From an uncultured bacterium (GTDB lineage Bacteria; Verrucomicrobiota; Verrucomicrobiia; Verrucomicrobiales; DEV007), in the NCBI GenBank assembly GCA_963977015.1, contig CAXBMO010000047.1, forward strand, positions 1 to 19,472: 19,472 nucleotides of DNA, read 5' to 3'. Below are positions 6,675 to 19,472 of this stretch, piece after piece. Numbering within the stretch: the stretch's first letter is position 1; each line of letters begins with the position of its first letter. The notes below the pieces were generated by a model that ran no database searches, was not told the origin of the DNA, and worked only from the letters and a program-made list of their open reading frames with translations. Made by a program: the position numbers and the translations under genes.

Positions 6675-7535
6675 TCAAGGGCGAATCGGGCTGATTATCC
6701 GCATTCTCTCGTTCTCGACCCGCTCGGGAATGCGTTGGGATTGGGGAATGCCCAGCTTCTCCTCGAGATCACGAATACTGACGATCAGGGTCGGTCGCCA
6801 GACCATGACGCCTTGTTGGATCAAGACCTGTTTGCCCTGTTCGTAGATCCGCATGAGCACTTCATACGCTTTTTTCTCCTCTCCCGGACACTTGGCCAAT
6901 TGGTAGGCGTAAAAGCGGTAAAAGAAGCTCGGCGCGTTTGGAATCCGGCTGGCTTCCAGGTAGATTTGGGCGGTGGCACAGGGATCTTTAAATCGTTCGC
7001 GATAAACGCCTCCCAAATCCCGCCAAAGCCACGGATCGTGAGGATTCCACTTGATGCCCTGTCGCAAAATCGCTTCGCCACGGCGTTCATATTCCTTGGC
7101 GCGCGGCTCGCGAAGCGGTTCCGGCAGGGTGCGATCGTCCAGGCGATACCAGGCGCTCGCGTTGGCGTAGAGGTGCCACGCTCCGGTCGCCCAACTCTCC
7201 GCATCCCGTGGTTGAAGCAGCATCACCAGCCGATATTTCTCCTCCAACTGATCCCAATCCTGCGTTTCCCAGAAGGCGTTTGCTTTCAGGGTGAAAAACG
7301 TGGCCACCATGTATCGCAAACCTCCCAAAATCCCGATAAACCCCTGAACGCCAATCTGTTCGGTGGCTGATGATGCCTGGTGTTGGGGCAGGAACCCTTC
7401 GGAACGAAGATTCTTGAGCAGCGAATTCTCAATCGGAACCCGGACGAATCCCGCCAGAATCACGACGGTCAGAACCAACGTCAGTTTGTGCGGCAGGAGC
7501 CGTGCGAATTTGAGAATGGGTTCGGGAAGCTTCAT
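6675..7535 (-). CDS. Hypothetical membrane-anchored helical-repeat (TPR-like) protein in the ABC transporter operon
   Basis: 286-aa ORF 9 bp downstream of the permease; N-terminal hydrophobic segment; TPR-like stretch AILRQGIKWNPHDPWLWRDLG. Confidence 0.8.
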   Translation of the reverse strand: MKLPEPILKFARLLPHKLTLVLTVVILAGFVRVPIENSLLKNLRSEGFLPQHQASSATEQIGVQGFIGILGGLRYMVATFFTLKANAFWETQDWDQLEEKYRLVMLLQPRDAESWATGAWHLYANASAWYRLDDRTLPEPLREPRAKEYERRGEAILRQGIKWNPHDPWLWRDLGGVYRERFKDPCATAQIYLEASRIPNAPSFFYRFYAYQLAKCPGEEKKAYEVLMRIYEQGKQVLIQQGVMVWRPTLIVSIRDLEEKLGIPQSQRIPERVENERMRIISPIRP

Positions 7536-7544
7536 CAGGTTCGC

Positions 7545-8486
7545 TCAAAGTTCCTTGTCCACGAAGATCAACTGGCTCAGCAGAAGAAAGAGAGCGAGGT
7601 AGAAAAAGCCGAGTCCCGTCATCTGCAGGGCCGCACCCGTCGCCAGCGTTGAGCCGGTGATCACTTCATCGACGACGTCAAACATCGCCAGATTGGGAAA
7701 CAGGAGTCTGAGGAGATTCGAGACGATGATTCCTCCCAGTCCGACCCCTTCGTCGAACCAGTAGTCCATCGCGATTTGGTGAAAGTGCCCGATGAACACG
7801 ACCATCGTCGTCGAGACAATCGTGAAGAGCGAACTGGAGGCAAAGGTCGAGATGAAAAGCGTCACCACGGTGATGACGCTCGCCTTGAGAAACAGCGCCC
7901 AGAATCCCCAGAACAGGCTGAGGGTGACGCCCTGCTTCCGGGCCGCTTCGATGGTTCGGGCCTGATCCTCCATACTGATCGCTTCGCCTTTCGCCGCGAA
8001 TTGCAGTTCCGACATCATCTGGACTTCCACCGCGGGAATTTTCCACATGACGAGCAGGCACATGAGCCCAAACATCGCGAACAGGGCGATCGCGTTGACC
8101 GAAATCACGCCGAGGAGGCGCCCCGCCAGGTATTCGAACCGGGGAACCGGTTTGGAGAGAATGGTGTAAAGCGTTCGATCCTCCACATCGCGAGGGAGGA
8201 GGAGGGACGTCGCCGAGATGGAATAGACCATCGAGAAGACATACATCGCTCCGAACGACCACCGTTTGATCTGCAATAGGTGATCAACCGGCTGCCACAA
8301 CAGCCCAATCGCCACGATCACGAGGATCAAAGCCGCGAAAACGAGGAGAAAGTAGAACACCTTCATCCGCACGAGCTGCACGATCGTGTTCTGCGCCAGA
8401 ACCCAGATGCGGGAAGGCGAAAACGCGAATGCCGGCAGAATCGAAGACGGCTGATCTTGGGAAGTTGTCGAGTGGTCGGAATTCAC
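7545..8486 (-). CDS. ABC-2 type transporter permease
   Basis: About six TM segments; motif LPRDVEDRTLYTILSKPVPRFEYLAGRLLG; adjacent to the ABC ATPase. GTG start is uncertain. Confidence 0.9.
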   Translation of the reverse strand: MNSDHSTTSQDQPSSILPAFAFSPSRIWVLAQNTIVQLVRMKVFYFLLVFAALILVIVAIGLLWQPVDHLLQIKRWSFGAMYVFSMVYSISATSLLLPRDVEDRTLYTILSKPVPRFEYLAGRLLGVISVNAIALFAMFGLMCLLVMWKIPAVEVQMMSELQFAAKGEAISMEDQARTIEAARKQGVTLSLFWGFWALFLKASVITVVTLFISTFASSSLFTIVSTTMVVFIGHFHQIAMDYWFDEGVGLGGIIVSNLLRLLFPNLAMFDVVDEVITGSTLATGAALQMTGLGFFYLALFLLLSQLIFVDKEL

Positions 8487-15064: not shown

Positions 15065-15094
15065 TTGACGTGCCCGCTCGATGGACTCTAGAAT
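15065..15094 (+). promoter_or_regulatory. Sigma70-type promoter of the receptor/DGR-target gene
   Basis: TTGACG (15065-15070), 18-bp spacer, TAGAAT (15089-15094); each hexamer is 5/6 to consensus. ATG 15081 lies in the spacer, which favours ATG 15120 as the start. Confidence 0.65.
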
Positions 15095-15119
15095 CCCACT
15101 GCAAACGCAGGCTTGGACC

Positions 15120-18100
15120 ATGGAAGCAGATTCGCAGATCAACACTCCTACCGAACCCAAAACCCTCCGCATCTTCATCTCCTCACCGGGCGATGTGAAC
15201 GCGGAGCGGGATAAGGCGAAGCAGGTCATCGCCCAGCTTCAGAAGTGGTATGGGTCGTCGGTTAGGTTGGTGCCGGTGTTGTGGGAGGATCTGCCGTTGG
15301 AGATCAACGCCTCATTCCAGGATGGGATCGACGTGATTCTTTCCGGCGACAAAGGAATCGACATCGCCGTTTTCATCCTCTGGAGCCGGATTGGGACGCC
15401 GGTCACGATTGGCGACAAGCATTACAACTCCGGGACGGAACGCGAATTCGATCTCATGCTTCAGGCGCTCGACTCCAGCGGCGGGGAACGGCCCGATATC
15501 ATTTTCTACCGGCGGGACGACGATGATGGCTTCAAACGCAGGCTCACCGGCGAAGGTAATTCCGCGGAGATCCGGGAGATGCTCAACCAGAGTGAGCTGG
15601 CCCAATCCTTCGTCCAAGAGCATTTCTGGGATGAGCACGGCCAGAACAACCGCGCTTACCATTCCTTCCACCAGCCGGTCGAGTTCGCCGGACGGCTCAA
15701 GGTCCACCTTCAGGGTCTGATCGACAAACGCCTGGAGAATTTCGGCTTGAGCCGGGAAGCGACCTGGGCGGACGCCCCGTATCGCGGGTTGGAAACCTTT
15801 GATCTTCAACACGCCGACATCTTCTTCGGGCGTGAGCGGGAAATCGTGGAACTGGAGAGCCGACTGAGGGAACGCGAGCGAGCCGCGGACTCCGCCGAAA
15901 CGTATTCCGGACATTTGTCCGGAAATTCCCCTGGCCCGGCCTCCGGACAAATGTCCGGAGTACAGCCACCCACCGCCTTCGTCGCCGTGATCGGGGCGAG
16001 CGGCTCCGGCAAATCTTCCCTCGTCCGCGCCGGTCTCCGCGCCAACCTGACTCGGTTCAACCTGGATGAATCCATCTCCGAATGGCGTTCCATGGTCATG
16101 ATGCCCGCCCAGTCCGCAGGAAACCCGATCTCCCACCTCCTCGATTGCCTCGTCCAGCCCGGCGCATTGCCCGAACTGAAAGAGTCGGGCATCCCGCTCC
16201 CCGAAATCGCCCAGAACCTCGCCGAATCGCCCAAACCTACCGTCAACCTCACGATTAAGCCCGCGCTGTTACGCGATTCAAGGAGAGGCGACAATCCTGT
16301 CGCCCCCGGAGCCTTGGCCGATGAAGCCGGACCGACGCAGGCGACAGGATTGTCGCCTCTCCCTGCGCAAAAACTCCTCATCATCATCGACCAGTTCGAA
16401 GAACTGTTCACCGACAAACGCATCTCCGGCGAATCCCGCGACGCCTTCCTCACTACCCTCGAAGCCCTCGCCCAATCCGGCCTCTGCTGGGTCGTCATCA
16501 CGATGCGGAGCGATTTCTACCCCGTGGCCCAGAAATCGGAGATTTTTCTCCGCCTCAAGGGAGAAACCGGCCAGTTCGATCTCCTCGCCCCCGGCCCGGA
16601 AGCCCTCCGCCGCATCATCACCGAACCGGCTCGCATGGCGGGCCTCCACTTCGAGCGCCGCGCCCCGGAACTCGGCGGCCAGAGCGTCGTCGGCAAGATC
16701 CTGGAAGACGCCAAGAACCAGCCGGACATGCTCCCGCTGCTCTCCGACCTGCTCCTGGAACTCTACCAGCGCCGCACCCCGGAGAACCTGGTCACCTTCG
16801 CCGCCTACGAATCGCTCGGGGATCCCGCCAAGGGCGTCACCGGCCTGGAAGGCGCCTTGAGCACCCGCGCCGACAAGGAGTTCGACAAGCTGACCCCGGA
16901 GCAGCAAAAGACCTGCCCGGAAATCCTCCACGCCCTCGTCACCGTCGAGGCGGATGCCGACGTGCGCCGCCGCGCTAACCTCGCCGCCCTCAAGGACACC
17001 CCGCAGAAAACCGCCCTGGTCGATGCCTTCATCAACGCCCGTCTCCTCACTGCCGACGGCCCGAGCGTTTCCCTGGCCCACGAGGCACTTCTCCGAAAAT
17101 GGGACCGCGTCGCCGACTGGGTCCGCGACAACCGCCAGCACCTCCGGATCCGTTCCCGCGTCGAGCAAGCGATGCGCCGCTGGCAAAGCCGCAACCAGCA
17201 TTCCTCGCTCCTGTTGCCCCGAGGTTTGGAGTTGGCGGAGGGCCTCGGCCTGCTTCGGCAGGCACCACACCTGCTGGCCGGGAAAGAGTATGACCCGGTA
17301 CGCGACTACATAAGGCGTTCCAAACGGCGTCATTTCTGGCGACGATTTTGGCTCTGGACGGTGATCCTCGCGATAGCGGGATTCGCCCTGATCGTAGGCT
17401 TCCTCGGCCTATTTCTCGTTCTGTTGGGGATAGGTGCTCCCAGTGATATGGAATTGAAAGACTACCATGAGGAGGTTTATGAAGGGGACGTGCAGATGCC
17501 TGAGCCACCGCCCCTTCTGGATGACCCACAGGCGGCGGTAAGGCCGTTTCATCGCTTTAAAAATCGTGTCGGCATCGAAATGATGTGGTGTTGGCCTGGT
17601 ACCTTTACCATGGGCCGCCCTCGCGATGAACCTGGTCGTTTCGACGAGGAAGCGTCGCGGGATGTTCGCCTGACTCGCGGTTTTTGGATGGCGCGAACCG
17701 AGGTAACCCAGGGGCAGTGGAGCAAACTGATGGCAGAGAATCCCAGCCTCTTCCGTTTCAGCAAACGTCATCCGGTGGAGCGCGTGAGTTGGAATGGCGC
17801 GACGACGTTTTGCCGTCACCTGACCGAGTTGGAAAGATCAACGGGCACCATTCCGATCCACTGGGAATACACCCTGCCTACTGAGGCGCAGTGGGAATAC
17901 GCCTGCCGGGCGGGGAGTTCCGCTCCGTTTTCCGGGCCCAGTTTGGCAGAGATGGGGTGGTACTTACACAACGCCTTTCTTCATACTCATCCAGTGGGAT
18001 TGAAGAAGTCCAACCGCTGGGGCTTCTACGACATGCACGGCAACGTCTTTGAATGGTGTCTGGACGGCTACGGTAATTACGATCCTAAGCAAACCAAGGA

Positions 18101-18272
18101 CCCGTTTTCAGATCCTAGGCAGGCCACGAACCGGGTGCACCGGGGCGGCAGTTGGATCAACGGCGCGTCCGGCTGCCGGTCGGCGAGCCGCTACGGGAGC
18201 GGCCCGGGCAGCCGGAGCAACGGCGCCCTGGGTTTTCGCCCAGTCCTTACTCAGGTCCGCCCACAGGAATAG
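15120..18272 (+). CDS. DUF4062 (TIR-like) - nSTAND1 NTPase - TM - FGE-sulfatase (C-type lectin fold) protein; probable DGR target
   Basis: RIFISSPGDV..ER, ILWSRIGT and SGTEREF (DUF4062). PYRGLETF..FFGRE, Walker A GASGSGKSS, Walker B IIIDQFEELF, TMRSDF and AHEALLRKW (nSTAND1). TM helix about 17346-17438. GTFTMG, TEVTQGQW, LPTEAQWEYACRAG, YDMHGNVFEW and RGGSW...LGFR (FGE-sulfatase). Confidence 0.93.
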   Translation: MEADSQINTPTEPKTLRIFISSPGDVNAERDKAKQVIAQLQKWYGSSVRLVPVLWEDLPLEINASFQDGIDVILSGDKGIDIAVFILWSRIGTPVTIGDKHYNSGTEREFDLMLQALDSSGGERPDIIFYRRDDDDGFKRRLTGEGNSAEIREMLNQSELAQSFVQEHFWDEHGQNNRAYHSFHQPVEFAGRLKVHLQGLIDKRLENFGLSREATWADAPYRGLETFDLQHADIFFGREREIVELESRLRERERAADSAETYSGHLSGNSPGPASGQMSGVQPPTAFVAVIGASGSGKSSLVRAGLRANLTRFNLDESISEWRSMVMMPAQSAGNPISHLLDCLVQPGALPELKESGIPLPEIAQNLAESPKPTVNLTIKPALLRDSRRGDNPVAPGALADEAGPTQATGLSPLPAQKLLIIIDQFEELFTDKRISGESRDAFLTTLEALAQSGLCWVVITMRSDFYPVAQKSEIFLRLKGETGQFDLLAPGPEALRRIITEPARMAGLHFERRAPELGGQSVVGKILEDAKNQPDMLPLLSDLLLELYQRRTPENLVTFAAYESLGDPAKGVTGLEGALSTRADKEFDKLTPEQQKTCPEILHALVTVEADADVRRRANLAALKDTPQKTALVDAFINARLLTADGPSVSLAHEALLRKWDRVADWVRDNRQHLRIRSRVEQAMRRWQSRNQHSSLLLPRGLELAEGLGLLRQAPHLLAGKEYDPVRDYIRRSKRRHFWRRFWLWTVILAIAGFALIVGFLGLFLVLLGIGAPSDMELKDYHEEVYEGDVQMPEPPPLLDDPQAAVRPFHRFKNRVGIEMMWCWPGTFTMGRPRDEPGRFDEEASRDVRLTRGFWMARTEVTQGQWSKLMAENPSLFRFSKRHPVERVSWNGATTFCRHLTELERSTGTIPIHWEYTLPTEAQWEYACRAGSSAPFSGPSLAEMGWYLHNAFLHTHPVGLKKSNRWGFYDMHGNVFEWCLDGYGNYDPKQTKDPFSDPRQATNRVHRGGSWINGASGCRSASRYGSGPGSRSNGALGFRPVLTQVRPQE
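15902..15963. repeat. REP-doublet-like palindromic element inserted in frame in the CDS
   Basis: GTATTCCGGACATTTGTCCGGA (15902-15923) and TCCGGACAAATGTCCGGAGTAC (15942-15963) are reverse complements at 21/22 positions; each arm is itself a hairpin. Confidence 0.85.
16282..16362. repeat. Second REP-doublet-like palindromic element inserted in frame in the CDS
   Basis: GGAGAGGCGACAATCCTGTCGCC (16282-16304) and GGCGACAGGATTGTCGCCTCTCC (16340-16362) form a perfect 23-bp inverted repeat; each arm holds a GGCGACA-N4-TGTCGCC hairpin. Confidence 0.88.
18129..18245 (+). other. Putative DGR variable region (VR) with its 3' IMH-like end
   Basis: Last part of the CLec domain. The non-scaffold positions are almost all NNC codons (CAC, ATC, AAC, GGC, TCC, GGC, AGC, TAC, AGC, GGC, GGC, AGC, AGC, AAC, GGC, GCC), as expected from AAC templates. 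None of the 37 codons in 18129-18239 ends in A. An HRDC gene lies downstream. The template repeat is not in the window. Confidence 0.75.
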
Positions 18273-18279
18273 GAGCGGA

Positions 18280-18360
18280 GCCTTCCGCGCCGTAGGTCGG
18301 ACCGAGCGAGGGACGAGCGGCCCGACGGAGGAGGGCGGTCAGGCATGCGGCGTTGAAGGC
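18280..18360. other. Nested GC-rich stem-loop just after the VR (candidate DGR homing cis-element)
   Basis: Outer arms GCCTTCCGCGCCG (18280-18292) / CGGCGTTGAAGGC (18348-18360), 11/13. Inner arms GTCGGACCG (18296-18304) / CGGCCCGAC (18318-18326), 8/9, with a 13-nt purine-rich loop. No U-tract. Confidence 0.55.
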
Positions 18361-18418
18361 GGAGCGGCGCGTACTTTGCGCTTGAATTCTTGCGAAGCGG
18401 TAGAGCGTTAGGGTCATC

Positions 18419-19066
18419 ATGGCATTCCAATACTTCCAAATCCCGGCGGCGGACGGCGAGTCTGTCCAGGCCGAGTTAAACGCGTTTCTGGCCGGGAAAA
18501 AGGTCATCCGCCTGGAGCAGCACTTTGTGGCCGAAGGGGCGAGTTCCTTCTGGGCGGTCTCGGTCCAATACAGCGCAGGTTCTGGTCCGAGCGGCAACGC
18601 CGCGAAGCGGTCGGCCCCGTTCAAGAATCAGGTCGATTACCGGGAAATCCTCTCCCCGGAAGATTTCACGATTTACGACCGGCTGCGTCGCCTGCGCAAA
18701 CAGCTGGCCAAAGACGAGGGGCTGGAGGTCTCGGCAGGATGGGCCGATTGGGACGGGCGGCCAAAGGGAAGGAACGGGGCGGAAAGTCGCTTCGCCGATT
18801 TGGAGATGCGGCGCTTTTTCCGGCTGGAGGCATTGTTCGGGGCTGTGTGAGGAAGCTCATCGCCGCCCCGAGCCGCAACCTCCAGCCGAAAAAATCGCTC
18901 GCAGCCCGCCTCGCCCCAATCGTCCCACCCAGCCGCAACCTGTTCAGCAACGAGCAACTGGCCGCGATGGTGACCGAGCAGGTAAGAACCCCCCGCCGAC
19001 CTGCGCAAGATCAACGGGATCGGCGACATCAAGTTGGAGCAATACGGCGCGGAGTTTCTCGACGCC
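18419..19066 (+). pseudogene. HRDC-domain protein (DGR accessory type), disrupted by a hairpin insertion and a +1 frameshift
   Basis: Reconstructed from three pieces: MAFQYFQIP...ELNAFL...VDYREILSPEDFTIYDRLRRLRKQLAKDEGLEV (18419-18730); NLFSNEQLAAMVTEQVRTP (18937-18993); then, after an extra C in the C6 run at 18989-18994, ADLRKINGIGDIKLEQYGAEFLDA (18995-19066). Confidence 0.85.
18732..18935. mobile_element. ~204-bp MITE-like long-hairpin insertion in the HRDC gene
   Basis: Terminal arms 18732-18760 / 18906-18935 match at about 25/30. Inner arms 18807-18843 / 18865-18903. Lies exactly between two contiguous HRDC segments. No clear target-site duplication. Confidence 0.65.
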
Positions 19067-19081
19067 CGTACCCTCGGGAAA

Positions 19082-19283
19082 CGGGCTGAAAGCCCGAGAG
19101 CGCAAAGCCGGGGTCTTCAGGCCCCGGAATTCGGATCGATCAGCCTTGCGGCCTTGAAAGGTCGCCAGCAATCATGGAGGAATGGAAACCTCGCGGGCGA
19201 CCATTCAGGCCGCACTGGCATTGGTGAAACGGTGAAACCGGGGCTGAAGCCCTGGCCTTTGTGCGGAGGGGCCTTCAGCCCCG
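19082..19283. repeat. Compound inverted repeat built from REP-like GGGCTGAAAGCCC-type hairpins
   Basis: Left arm 19082-19169 (CGGGCTGAAAGCCCG, CCGGGGTCTTCAGGCCCCGG, GCGGCCTTGAAAGGTCGC) is mirrored by right arm 19193-19283 (GCGACCATTCAGGCCGC, CCGGGGCTGAAGCCCTGG, GGGGCCTTCAGCCCC). Confidence 0.75.
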
Positions 19284-19320
19284 GATCATTCGATCGTCCG
19301 GCAAAGAGCGTTCGGTCGAT

Positions 19321-19405
19321 AACCTGTTCAGTAACGAGCCATTGGCGGCGATGGTGACCCAGCAGGTGGATCGCCTGCCGCCCCGCTTCAGATCGACGGG
19401 GATCG
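19321..19405 (+). pseudogene. Second, degenerate fragment of the HRDC C-terminal half
   Basis: 19321-19367 matches 18937-18983 at 42/47 nt (NLFSNEPLAAMVTQQV); weaker similarity continues to GATCGACGGGGATCG. Confidence 0.75.
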
Positions 19406-19472
19406 ACGGGGATCGAAGGGATCGAAGGGATCGAAGGGATCGAAGGGATCGAAGGGATCGAAGGGATCGAAG
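19391..19472. repeat. Short tandem repeat running off the window end
   Basis: 2 x GATCGACGGG (19391-19410), then 6 full copies and one 8-nt partial copy of GATCGAAGG (19411-19472). Confidence 0.97.

Follow-up and report, generated by a model that had tools for sequence, protein, structure and literature searches.

At the 3' end of a 19,472-nucleotide contig from an uncultured verrucomicrobial bacterium (CAXBMO010000047.1), one large gene, P0001, is followed by the pieces of another, and the question that this arrangement raises is whether the encoded protein is a receptor whose tip is, or once was, rewritten by a diversity-generating retroelement (DGR). The window referred to throughout is that whole contig at its full length, designated C47 in a 6.89-Mb assembly of 51 contigs that is 95.3% complete. 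Our reading, to which we would assign a probability of roughly 0.62, is that P0001 is a single-pass receptor in which a DUF4062-like domain, an nSTAND1 NTPase module, one transmembrane (TM) segment, and an FGE-sulfatase domain follow one another, that its variable-repeat (VR) tip was written by a DGR of the HRDC type formerly located directly downstream, and that this retroelement has since decayed. The concept of an effector-nSTAND1-FGS protein coupled to a DGR is already in print (Kaur 2021; Doré 2024), and the locus is, in those terms, a well-preserved relic. What distinguishes it is the TM topology with a predicted outer lectin tip, the DUF4062-type effector, and the decayed state of its HRDC-type cassette. 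The receptor gene comprises the following features.

15081 to 18272, forward strand: receptor coding sequence P0001, an uninterrupted frame of 1063 residues.
15159 to 15776, forward strand: conserved N-terminal domain, residues 27-232, with a DUF4062-like core at residues 30-124 (Pfam, relatives, PADLOC).
15777 to 17204, forward strand: nSTAND1 NTPase module, residues 233-708 (PF20703, E 8.9e-91).
17346 to 17435, forward strand: single predicted transmembrane segment, residues 756-785, from hydropathy, with RRSKRRHFWRR just N-terminal to it.
17577 to 18245, forward strand: FGE-sulfatase/C-type-lectin-fold domain, residues 833-1055 (PF03781, E 1.8e-40), predicted to be extracytoplasmic.
About 18120 to 18246, forward strand: VR-type segment, residues ~1014-1055, recognized by adenine-site differences from two heterologous template repeats (TRs).

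An earlier note, made from the letters alone, had described a single open reading frame (ORF) joining a DUF4062/TIR-like domain, an nSTAND1 NTPase with intact Walker motifs, one TM helix, and an FGE/C-type lectin (CLec) domain, and this description is borne out by Pfam and hydropathy analysis, with the DUF4062 part borderline. The nSTAND1 match reaches 305.8 bits against a Pfam cut-off of 27.1 bits and covers profile positions 1-378 of 379, and both nucleotide-binding motifs are intact, the Walker A (GASGSGKS) at residue 305 (15993-16016) and the Walker B (IIIDQFEE) at residue 434 (16380-16403). The FGE domain is equally clear, at 139.6 bits against 23.3 and profile positions 4-254 of 255. Residues 756-785 are the sole stretch of P0001 in which the 19-residue Kyte-Doolittle mean exceeds 1.6. 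The positive-inside rule is an established basis for orienting membrane proteins, and the charges that flank this segment are strongly asymmetric: the 15 residues before it, RRSKRRHFWRR included, hold 8 Lys/Arg, and the 15 after it hold 1 Lys/Arg and 5 Asp/Glu. By this rule, and thus from sequence, the N-terminal two-thirds of P0001 is predicted to be cytoplasmic and the FGE domain to lie outside, as the note had argued from the basic motif before the helix. Promoter-like hexamers at 15065-15094 overlap the ATG at 15081, a weak hint that Met14 of this frame, an alternative start at 15120, may be the true start of the receptor; the alignment with the relative P0005 begins at residue 14 of P0001.

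Close relatives of the FGE domain are annotated in public databases as "formylglycine-generating enzyme family protein" or "SUMF1/EgtB/PvdO family nonheme iron enzyme". The true enzymes and enzyme-like proteins of this group (FGE/SUMF1, EgtB/OvoA, PvdO, and GldK/PorK) share the PF03781 fold family with P0001, whose domain scores far below the NCBIfam equivalog cut-offs for GldK (81.1 against 350), PvdO (71.7 against 500), EgtB (41.2 against 360), and OvoA (31.9 against 400). Since the domain forms the C-terminal tip of the receptor, it is far more likely to serve in binding than in catalysis.

The VR-like end that had been proposed for this domain is present at approximately 18120-18246. Fifteen matches of at least 90 bp were examined (three places entered twice under two locus identifiers). 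Against the TR of G032:C240, the window differs at 17 of 32 TR-adenine sites and at 8 of 91 other sites, and against the TR of G030:C35 it differs at 17 of 31 adenine sites and at 7 of 80 others; the enrichment at adenines gives a Fisher p of ~6e-7. AAC codons of the TR appear in the window as ATC, GGC, AGC, TAC, CAC, or AAC, and this codon pattern is that of a VR. Because TR adenines mark the variable surface positions of the family, the test identifies a VR-type segment and is no proof that a retroelement wrote this copy. The TR of G002, from the same genus, was rejected as the template of the window, as 24 of the 38 substitutions lie outside adenines and 14 at them. No nearer template for 18090-18440 was found in the same-genus genomes, where only remnants of the spacer and accessory gene match, at 83-85% identity.

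Intact counterparts of this system occur in related genomes. The accessory protein was found in 11 of the 61 genomes searched (G000 included), and an RVT_1 match lies directly beside its gene in six places: G002:C116, G032:C240, G032:C130, G030:C35, G030:C29, and G050:C22, of which G002 is from the same genus as the window and G032 and G030 are from the same family. In the intact cassettes, the reverse transcriptase (RT) ORF starts at or overlaps the HRDC stop. The cassette of G002:C116 is ordered target 1, HRDC, RT (331 residues), TR, and target 2. Its TR and the VR of target 1 differ by 19 substitutions, 17 of them at TR adenines, and with the VR of target 2 there are 17 at adenines and 8 elsewhere. 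Target 1 consists of DUF4062-like, nSTAND1, WD40, and FGE domains and is 85% identical to P0001 in the N-terminal domain and 75% in the STAND module, and target 2 is a TIR_2-FGE protein. Adenine specificity is also seen in the cassettes of G032:C240 (21/22 substitutions) and G030:C35 (23/26). The G032:C240 target, an nSTAND1-TM-FGE protein, has an FGE domain 67% identical to that of the window and is accompanied by an accessory protein at 48% identity, which makes this cassette the best intact counterpart of the 3' half of the locus. The receptor gene looks chimeric in this respect, its 5' two-thirds being nearest to the G002 target and its 3' third, together with the accessory gene, nearest to the G032 cassette. 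On the group II intron model, with its cut-off of 300 bits, the cassette RTs reach 89-114, and they fall below all retron and DRT cut-offs; the G002 RT has a match in the phage RT family phrog_1423 (E 4.6e-88). Intact, adenine-specific cassettes in one same-genus and two same-family genomes therefore establish this class of protein (effector-STAND-TM-CLec), as the earlier note had supposed, as a real DGR target.

The accessory proteins share, in residues 1-75, a conserved domain (F.IP...LN.FL...W) that belongs to no Pfam or PHROGs family, and PHROGs holds no family for the accessory protein. Pfam recognizes the HRDC domain in the three intact relatives scanned at E 1.5e-17 to 3.3e-20. As only three viral loci with this accessory type were found among viral contigs, there is no sign of a mainly phage-borne element. 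The contig of the intact two-target cassette (G002:C116; L027, 1-18000) carries further relics, and a second G002 locus (C25:36000-51295; L028) encodes caspase-FGE proteins and a protein with several tandem FGE domains. In the congener G001 (C25:130000-146000; L026, 7395-8332), an intact accessory gene (142 residues) stands beside a C-terminal FGE fragment only, and no RT lies within the 16 kb examined. A 69-bp direct repeat at this locus (6714-6782 and 8264-8332) shows four differences, which are not at adenines.

Downstream of the receptor gene, the window retains the beginning of such a cassette, as follows.

18273 to 18418, forward strand: spacer of 146 bp between target and accessory gene, conserved with two relic loci.
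18419 to 18727, forward strand: 5' part of the accessory gene, residues 1-102, with the N-terminal domain and the first HRDC helix (tblastn).
18728 to 18927, no strand assigned: insertion splitting the accessory gene, a diverged repeat resembling a miniature inverted-repeat transposable element (MITE), with its core at 18789-18916 (blastn).
18928 to 19063, forward strand: 3' HRDC pieces of the accessory gene, 18928-18978 frame-shifted and 18986-19063 in the first frame (tblastn).
19064 to 19472, no strand assigned: expected RT start, with no RT; repeats at 19080-19290, a second HRDC fragment at 19321-19408, and a tandem array.

The spacer is 82% identical to a second place in this genome (18299-18537 against C8:56357-56585) and 85% identical to a relic on the G002 cassette contig (18304-18440 against C116:426-568). 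Residues 1-102 of the accessory protein (18419-18724) match the accessory proteins of relatives with all eight queries at tblastn E values of 1e-18 to 5e-31, and the final piece, from 18986-19093, matches Pfam HRDC positions 43-67 of 68 at E 3.3e-5. They are separated by ~200 bp of inserted sequence (18728-18927), in which 18848-18850 is an in-frame stop. The repeat within this insert has 27 blastn matches in the genome, its own copy counted, of which 21 begin at query position 18789; full-length copies are ~215 bp long with inverted ends, and TAG or CTAG borders many of them. The copy in the window is ~80% identical to most others and 85% identical to that at C2:159424 (examples are C8:72225-72353 and C2:159424-159553), and the family is present in all three same-genus genomes, with 11, 18, and 4 matches. 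The accessory gene is thus dead, as previously noted, and lies in three pieces around the repeat, with an in-frame stop and a frameshift. The stem-loop that the note had placed after the VR has little support: imperfect hairpins at 18297-18328 and 18373-18396 and a short palindrome at 18379-18394 are all that is present, a hairpin scan returned 7-bp stems only, and 18225-18425 folds no more stably than shuffled sequences (z = -0.32).

Beyond the accessory gene, a second HRDC fragment (19321-19408) repeats 18937-19025 at 79% identity, and the contig ends in 8.1 copies of a 9-bp tandem unit (GGGATCGAA, 19399-19472), an array that is the probable cause of the break in the assembly. No RT N-terminus was detected in the 472 bases from 19001 to 19472, where the best tblastn match with five DGR RTs had an E value of 0.09; as a positive control, the equal-sized tail of G030:C35 gave 2e-34 and 3e-37 with heterologous RTs. 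An RVT_1 profile search of the genome found three RTs, of which two are group II intron RTs by equivalog cut-off (415 and 419 bits against 300) and the third, judged by its motifs, is of group II type with a frameshift. With the DGR RTs of five relatives as queries, the genome yielded nothing further except a 59-61-residue N-terminal stub at C1:601714-601890 that runs into a stop; the C-terminal half of an HRDC domain (C1:601416-601592) precedes this stub, the whole lying between housekeeping genes. A DNA search of the genome with 18040-18275 found no TR and returned only the 3' ends of two paralogous genes on C8 and C34, which are 74% and 76% identical to the query with mismatches at all four bases. 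Downstream of the C8 gene is the same spacer, followed by an accessory remnant with two stops. The remnants on C8 and C1 and in the congener (G001:C25) indicate that DGR debris is common in the genus.

The two paralogues are the kind of additional CLec genes that the earlier note had suggested seeking, and both have FGE domains with VR-like ends. The C8 gene (54864-56306; L005:193-1635) encodes a 480-residue TIR_2-FGE protein by Pfam, and the C34 gene (40068-41756) encodes a protein with a TIR-like N-terminus, judged from the sequence only, followed by a TM segment and the FGE domain.

The state of the locus was also followed in Logan contigs from four sequencing runs (X1-X4) aligned to 17600-19472, of which X1, dated 2021, is possibly the source sample and X2 and X3 are marine metagenomes from a different study, dated 2025. 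The VR is covered without a difference by contigs of X1 (18120-18566), X3 (18134-18364), and, for its 3' half, X2 (18166-18366), and no differing letters occur at 18100-18270 in contigs of any of the four runs. Stretches without coverage and contig ends near 18120-18166 carry no weight in this comparison. The junction between HRDC gene and insert is spanned, likewise with no differences, in X1 (18602-18831), X2 (18633-18783), and X4 (18639-18829), so that the break is real and not an assembly error. The VR thus looks fixed and, with RT and TR gone and the HRDC gene split, the specificity of the receptor is frozen, although the receptor gene itself is intact. The claim that the receptor is diversifiable is accordingly the part of the earlier proposal that fails in this genome, whose 95.3%-complete assembly has neither a DGR RT nor a TR; the same note had looked to close relatives as well, and there the cassettes are intact. 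An orthologue of the upstream neighbor in G001 (75% identity) was considered as a marker for dating the decay and rejected; because it is not beside the receptor orthologue, synteny gives no date.

DUF4062 is absent from the matches of full-length P0001 in a Pfam scan at E<=0.1. When the N-terminus is taken in isolation, residues 30-124 match PF13271 at E 4.8e-5 over profile positions 1-80 of 82. Of 19 aligned relatives, 15 match the family at E<=0.01, the best of them at 4.4e-7, and DUF4062 clusters make up 28 of the 30 named ESM-Atlas neighbors of the domain. The PADLOC candidate PDC-S60 matches residues 28-130 at E 2e-9; a PADLOC search at E<=0.1 returned no Avs model, the matches being to PDC-S60, mad3, and the P-loop of AriA. 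The motif SGTEREF occupies residues 117-123. In the alignment of relatives its E122 never varies, conservation of E120 and of F32 in RIFISSPGDV reaches at least 90%, and E122-F123 forms a Glu-aromatic motif. Three bioRxiv preprints of 2026 concern DUF4062 (10.64898/2026.05.01.722283, 10.64898/2026.09.04.749371, and 10.64898/2026.06.25.731849), and two of them (Swarozyc/TEP1 and NIR) describe assays in which DUF4062 is a TIR-like NADase with a catalytic Glu, with the STAND protein PsAvs2 and human TEP1 as examples. The E122-F123 pair and F32 of the window would correspond to E87-Y88 and F11 of Eva01 in these reports, an equation made by motif description alone. We therefore regard the N-terminal domain as a probable DUF4062-type, TIR-like effector that is likely to hydrolyze NAD+, with E122 as the probable catalytic residue; the TIR-like fold is suggested by borderline DUF4062 membership combined with the 2026 preprints.

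The N-terminal domain belongs to a large family, with 3396 cluster representatives at E<=1e-3. An nSTAND1 module follows it in all nine relatives scanned, and their C-terminal modules differ: four have clear WD40 propellers, P0004 has one weak WD40-type match, and the remainder carry a nucleotide cyclase, PEGA, PBP transpeptidase, or FGE domain or none that was recognized. Among the best 149 of the 3396 representatives, 126 have a STAND module with at least 150 residues after it, and in 114 of these 126 a hydrophobic segment lies just behind the module, so that a membrane-spanning layout is a trait of the family. FGE is a minority ectodomain, carried by 9 of the 126, and the segment is present in 8 of those 9. 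From the side of the FGE domain, 5648 of the 8000 proteins scored match at E<=1e-20; among the 120 matches listed, nSTAND1 occurs only in P0001, and the rest are FGE repeats or join FGE to kinases, caspases, TIR, or immunoglobulin domains. The TM topology appears to be new, as a membrane-spanning STAND class was not found mentioned in the papers searched. In their main texts, the three DUF4062 preprints never use the term "transmembrane", and Doré 2024 and Kaur 2020 never use "DUF4062"; the supplements of Doré 2024 may list this architecture.

Three further genes of this genome encode DUF4062-like and nSTAND1 domains, at C27:78001-79995, C44:17791-21198, and C9:204592-209928, with N-terminal domains 58%, 53%, and 31% identical to that of P0001, respectively. 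Their C-termini are a long helical-repeat region (C27), a multi-TM region (C44), and a long beta-rich region (C9), each with a TM segment after the STAND module.

Taken together, these observations suggest the following model for the history and action of the receptor. The ancestral order would have been target, HRDC, RT, and TR, as in the relatives, and an HRDC-type DGR would have written the last ~40 residues of the target; a MITE-like insertion and a frameshift would then have split the HRDC gene, and the RT and TR would have been lost. In the cell, binding of a ligand at the outer lectin tip would send a signal across the membrane and release the STAND module, NTP-dependent oligomerization would assemble the N-terminal domains, and depletion of NAD+ would lead to growth arrest or death. 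An outside-in activated, NAD+-depleting STAND receptor is the most likely function, given the identity of the domains and published work on relatives; topology, NADase activity, outside-in activation, and an immune role, whether in cell death or in self/non-self discrimination, are inferred. With its lectin tip predicted to lie in the periplasm or outside, the receptor would sense an envelope signal and not a cytoplasmic phage protein.

Several points weigh against this interpretation. The PF13271 score of 23.9 bits is just under the Pfam cut-off of 24.7; an hhalign comparison of the N-domain profile with three TIR_2 domains gave a probability of 1% and an E value of 0.05, with a sensible strand order, and a PDB sequence search with family profiles returned P-loop noise or nothing. 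The test for adenine bias is partly circular, as diverged homologues may differ at TR-adenine sites, which are variable surface sites, in any case. Among 80 public loci with related FGE domains, an RT and an HRDC gene lie within the examined flanks in only one. Accessory matches at E<=1e-3 were seen in eight of these loci, of which two stand (L090, with accessory gene and RT, and L055, with the accessory gene only); the other six were dropped because they hit the spurious N-terminal extension of an over-long ORF. L067, which had seemed to be a single protein matching residues 26-1060, was rejected because its FGE and N-terminal domains belong to two separate genes. The population contigs have a depth of 2-5, many are 151-447 nucleotides long (read length), so that rare variants are invisible, and one run is possibly the source sample. 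Finally, the assembly lacks about 5% of the genome and the contig ends in a tandem repeat 400 bp past the HRDC remnant, and an RT and TR could therefore act in trans from unassembled DNA.

This last point leads to a different account, which we regard as improbable, in which the DGR is still active, its RT and TR being in the unassembled 5% or beyond the contig end and working in trans without a local HRDC gene. Repeats such as TR and VR are a frequent cause of assembly breaks, and the fragmentation into 51 contigs and the stop of this one in a 9-bp array would suit such a scenario. The parts of a DGR may, moreover, sit elsewhere in a genome (Kaur 2021, PMC8195603), and as about half of HRDC-type DGRs also have avd (Wu 2018, PMC5758913), HRDC may be dispensable. 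Against this, group II RTs and a 61-residue stub are the only RVT_1/DGR-RT matches and no TR was found in 6.89 Mb, the RT expected at the HRDC stop is missing from 19001-19472, contigs of three runs, which come from two studies dated 2021 and 2025, show one and the same VR, and more debris of the same kind lies on C8 and C1 and in G001:C25. We consider it highly implausible to regard the VR-like tail as a plain conserved C-terminal motif of FGE domains that no DGR ever wrote and the HRDC fragments as unrelated debris. The frame RGGSW...C..S.R...GFR is indeed common to the fold, and 78 of the 80 public loci found with P0001 have related FGE domains while a DGR RT is near just one; yet the differences from two TRs fall on adenines (17/32 against 8/91 elsewhere for the first), the spacing and orientation of the accessory gene match those in five intact cassettes, and the spacer and the 5' end of the accessory gene are common to two other relic loci.

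A separate doubt concerns function. The receptor may have no role in immunity or death and may instead transduce envelope or environmental signals or mediate kin recognition, with the N-terminal domain serving in signaling or as a scaffold and not in the depletion of NAD+. Its gene is set in a housekeeping neighborhood with no defence island, the outer domains of relatives (PBP transpeptidase, PEGA, WD40, and nucleotide cyclase) suggest monitoring of the envelope, and the papers searched report no experiment on any member of the TM subfamily. We nevertheless think this unlikely: the DUF4062-STAND protein PsAvs2 and other DUF4062 proteins defend against phages through loss of NAD+ according to the 2026 preprints, the Glu of SGTEREF is invariant, a PADLOC candidate (PDC-S60) shares the N-terminal domain, and TIR_2 and caspase domains, both of them classic effectors of cell death, are found in sister DGR targets of the genus.

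The receptor reading that we favor, with its decayed HRDC-type DGR, places the locus close to several described systems. Kaur 2021 (eLife, PMC8195603) defines nSTAND1 and describes proteins in which an effector or effector-associated domain (EAD), a STAND module (NACHT, MNS, or nSTAND1), and an FGS domain are combined, often in association with a DGR whose RT and four-helix accessory protein accompany them, and reads the FGS domain as an intracellular sensor of invaders, an analogue of hypermutating antigen receptors. FGS domains and DGRs had been linked in ternary systems by Kaur 2020 (PMC7159879). Doré 2024 (PNAS, PMC10907252) places "putative antigen sensors" in DGR clade 5D, with targets that combine STAND (nSTAND1 or NACHT) and CLec domains, and mentions Verrucomicrobiota and planctomycetes; some of these targets begin with a TIR or peptidase domain, and a periplasmic location is predicted for some. 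The window shares with the systems of Kaur 2021 and Doré 2024 the order of N-terminal effector, central nSTAND1, and C-terminal FGE-type lectin fold with a VR; its relatives share the DGR beside the target and sister targets with TIR or caspase domains, and two targets per cassette, common in those systems, are also found in G002:C116. It differs in that its effector is DUF4062-like, its accessory protein is of the HRDC type and not a four-helix Avd, and its DGR is decayed, and from Kaur 2021 in particular in that the FGS domain is intracellular there, whereas a TM segment follows the STAND module in P0001 and in the 114 of 126 relatives. The HRDC type itself was described by Wu 2018 (NAR, PMC5758913), who found HRDC genes in 14 of 372 DGRs; in their architecture C (the Treponema denticola type), the HRDC gene lies between target and RT, the TR adjoins the RT, and the target has an FGE/CLec fold, all as in the relatives of the window. 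The accessory protein here differs in its extra N-terminal domain of ~75 residues and, in the window, in being encoded by a pseudogene.

DUF4062/NIR effectors include Swarozyc, PsAvs2, Vulcan, Vesta, Evangelion, and human TEP1 in the preprints, and P0001 resembles PsAvs2 and TEP1/NWD1 in having a DUF4062-type domain N-terminal to a STAND NTPase, with the conserved Glu-aromatic pair. In contrast to the characterized effectors, its domain is below the Pfam cut-off and belongs to a divergent subfamily of ~200 residues, and whereas the characterized systems sense cytoplasmic phage proteins, the sensor of P0001 is predicted to lie beyond the membrane. The same holds in comparison with the Avs-type anti-phage STAND proteins, which share the order effector-STAND-sensor; in the window, the sensor is behind a TM segment and predicted to be outside the cytoplasm. 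Toll-like receptors bind their ligands with an outer domain that a single TM helix connects to a cytoplasmic TIR-type domain. The likeness of P0001 to them is one of topology only, with no homology claimed, and there are two differences, in that P0001 has a STAND NTPase between membrane and TIR-like domain and that the domain order is inverted, the TIR-like domain being N-terminal and the sensor C-terminal.

Between 1426 and 14983 is a housekeeping neighborhood with no defence island, comprising genes for an AdoHcy hydrolase, a SAM synthetase, an ArsR-methyltransferase fusion, a NAGPA-like glycosidase, a metallophosphoesterase, an ABC ATPase, a DedA/VTT protein, and a PSCyt1-PSCyt2-PSD1 protein. 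Paralogues of this last protein number in the dozens across the genus, with 42-58 strong matches in each genome. The window contains no tRNAs and nothing that reaches an Rfam gathering score. Past the broken accessory gene, the hairpin-rich dispersed repeats at 19080-19290 also match C12, C15, C28, and C32, and on the reverse strand at 19082-19127 is a match to Acido-Lenti-1 RNA (RF01687) over the full model length at 28.9 bits, below the gathering score of 37 (E 2.8e-4). The genome holds seven sub-threshold copies of this RNA and none above the cut-off, two of them ~4 kb from the group II intron RT of C18.

For this genome alone, the finding is a modest one, an intact receptor beside the debris of a retroelement. 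Its wider interest lies in the fact that DGR-diversified STAND-lectin proteins are the closest proposed bacterial analogue to hypermutating antigen receptors and that none has been characterized. The effector here is of the DUF4062 type, which three preprints of 2026 link to depletion of NAD+ (two of them with direct NADase assays), and a simple read-out therefore exists in the loss of NAD+, with an E122Q mutant as control. It is tempting, if rather speculative, to see in P0001 one member of a large, undescribed class of outside-in receptors that combine a DUF4062 NADase, nSTAND1, one TM segment, and an exchangeable ectodomain (WD40, PEGA, PBP transpeptidase, or FGE), whose tip is hypermutated by HRDC-type DGRs in some Planctomycetes-Verrucomicrobia-Chlamydiae (PVC) lineages and whose DGR was lost here while the tip was kept, in what might be called germline capture of a specificity that arose somatically. 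If this is true, the identical VR in samples taken years apart would mean selection for one useful specificity toward an envelope ligand. With both working-looking and decayed cassettes present, this single genus provides a natural comparison of diversifying and frozen receptors.

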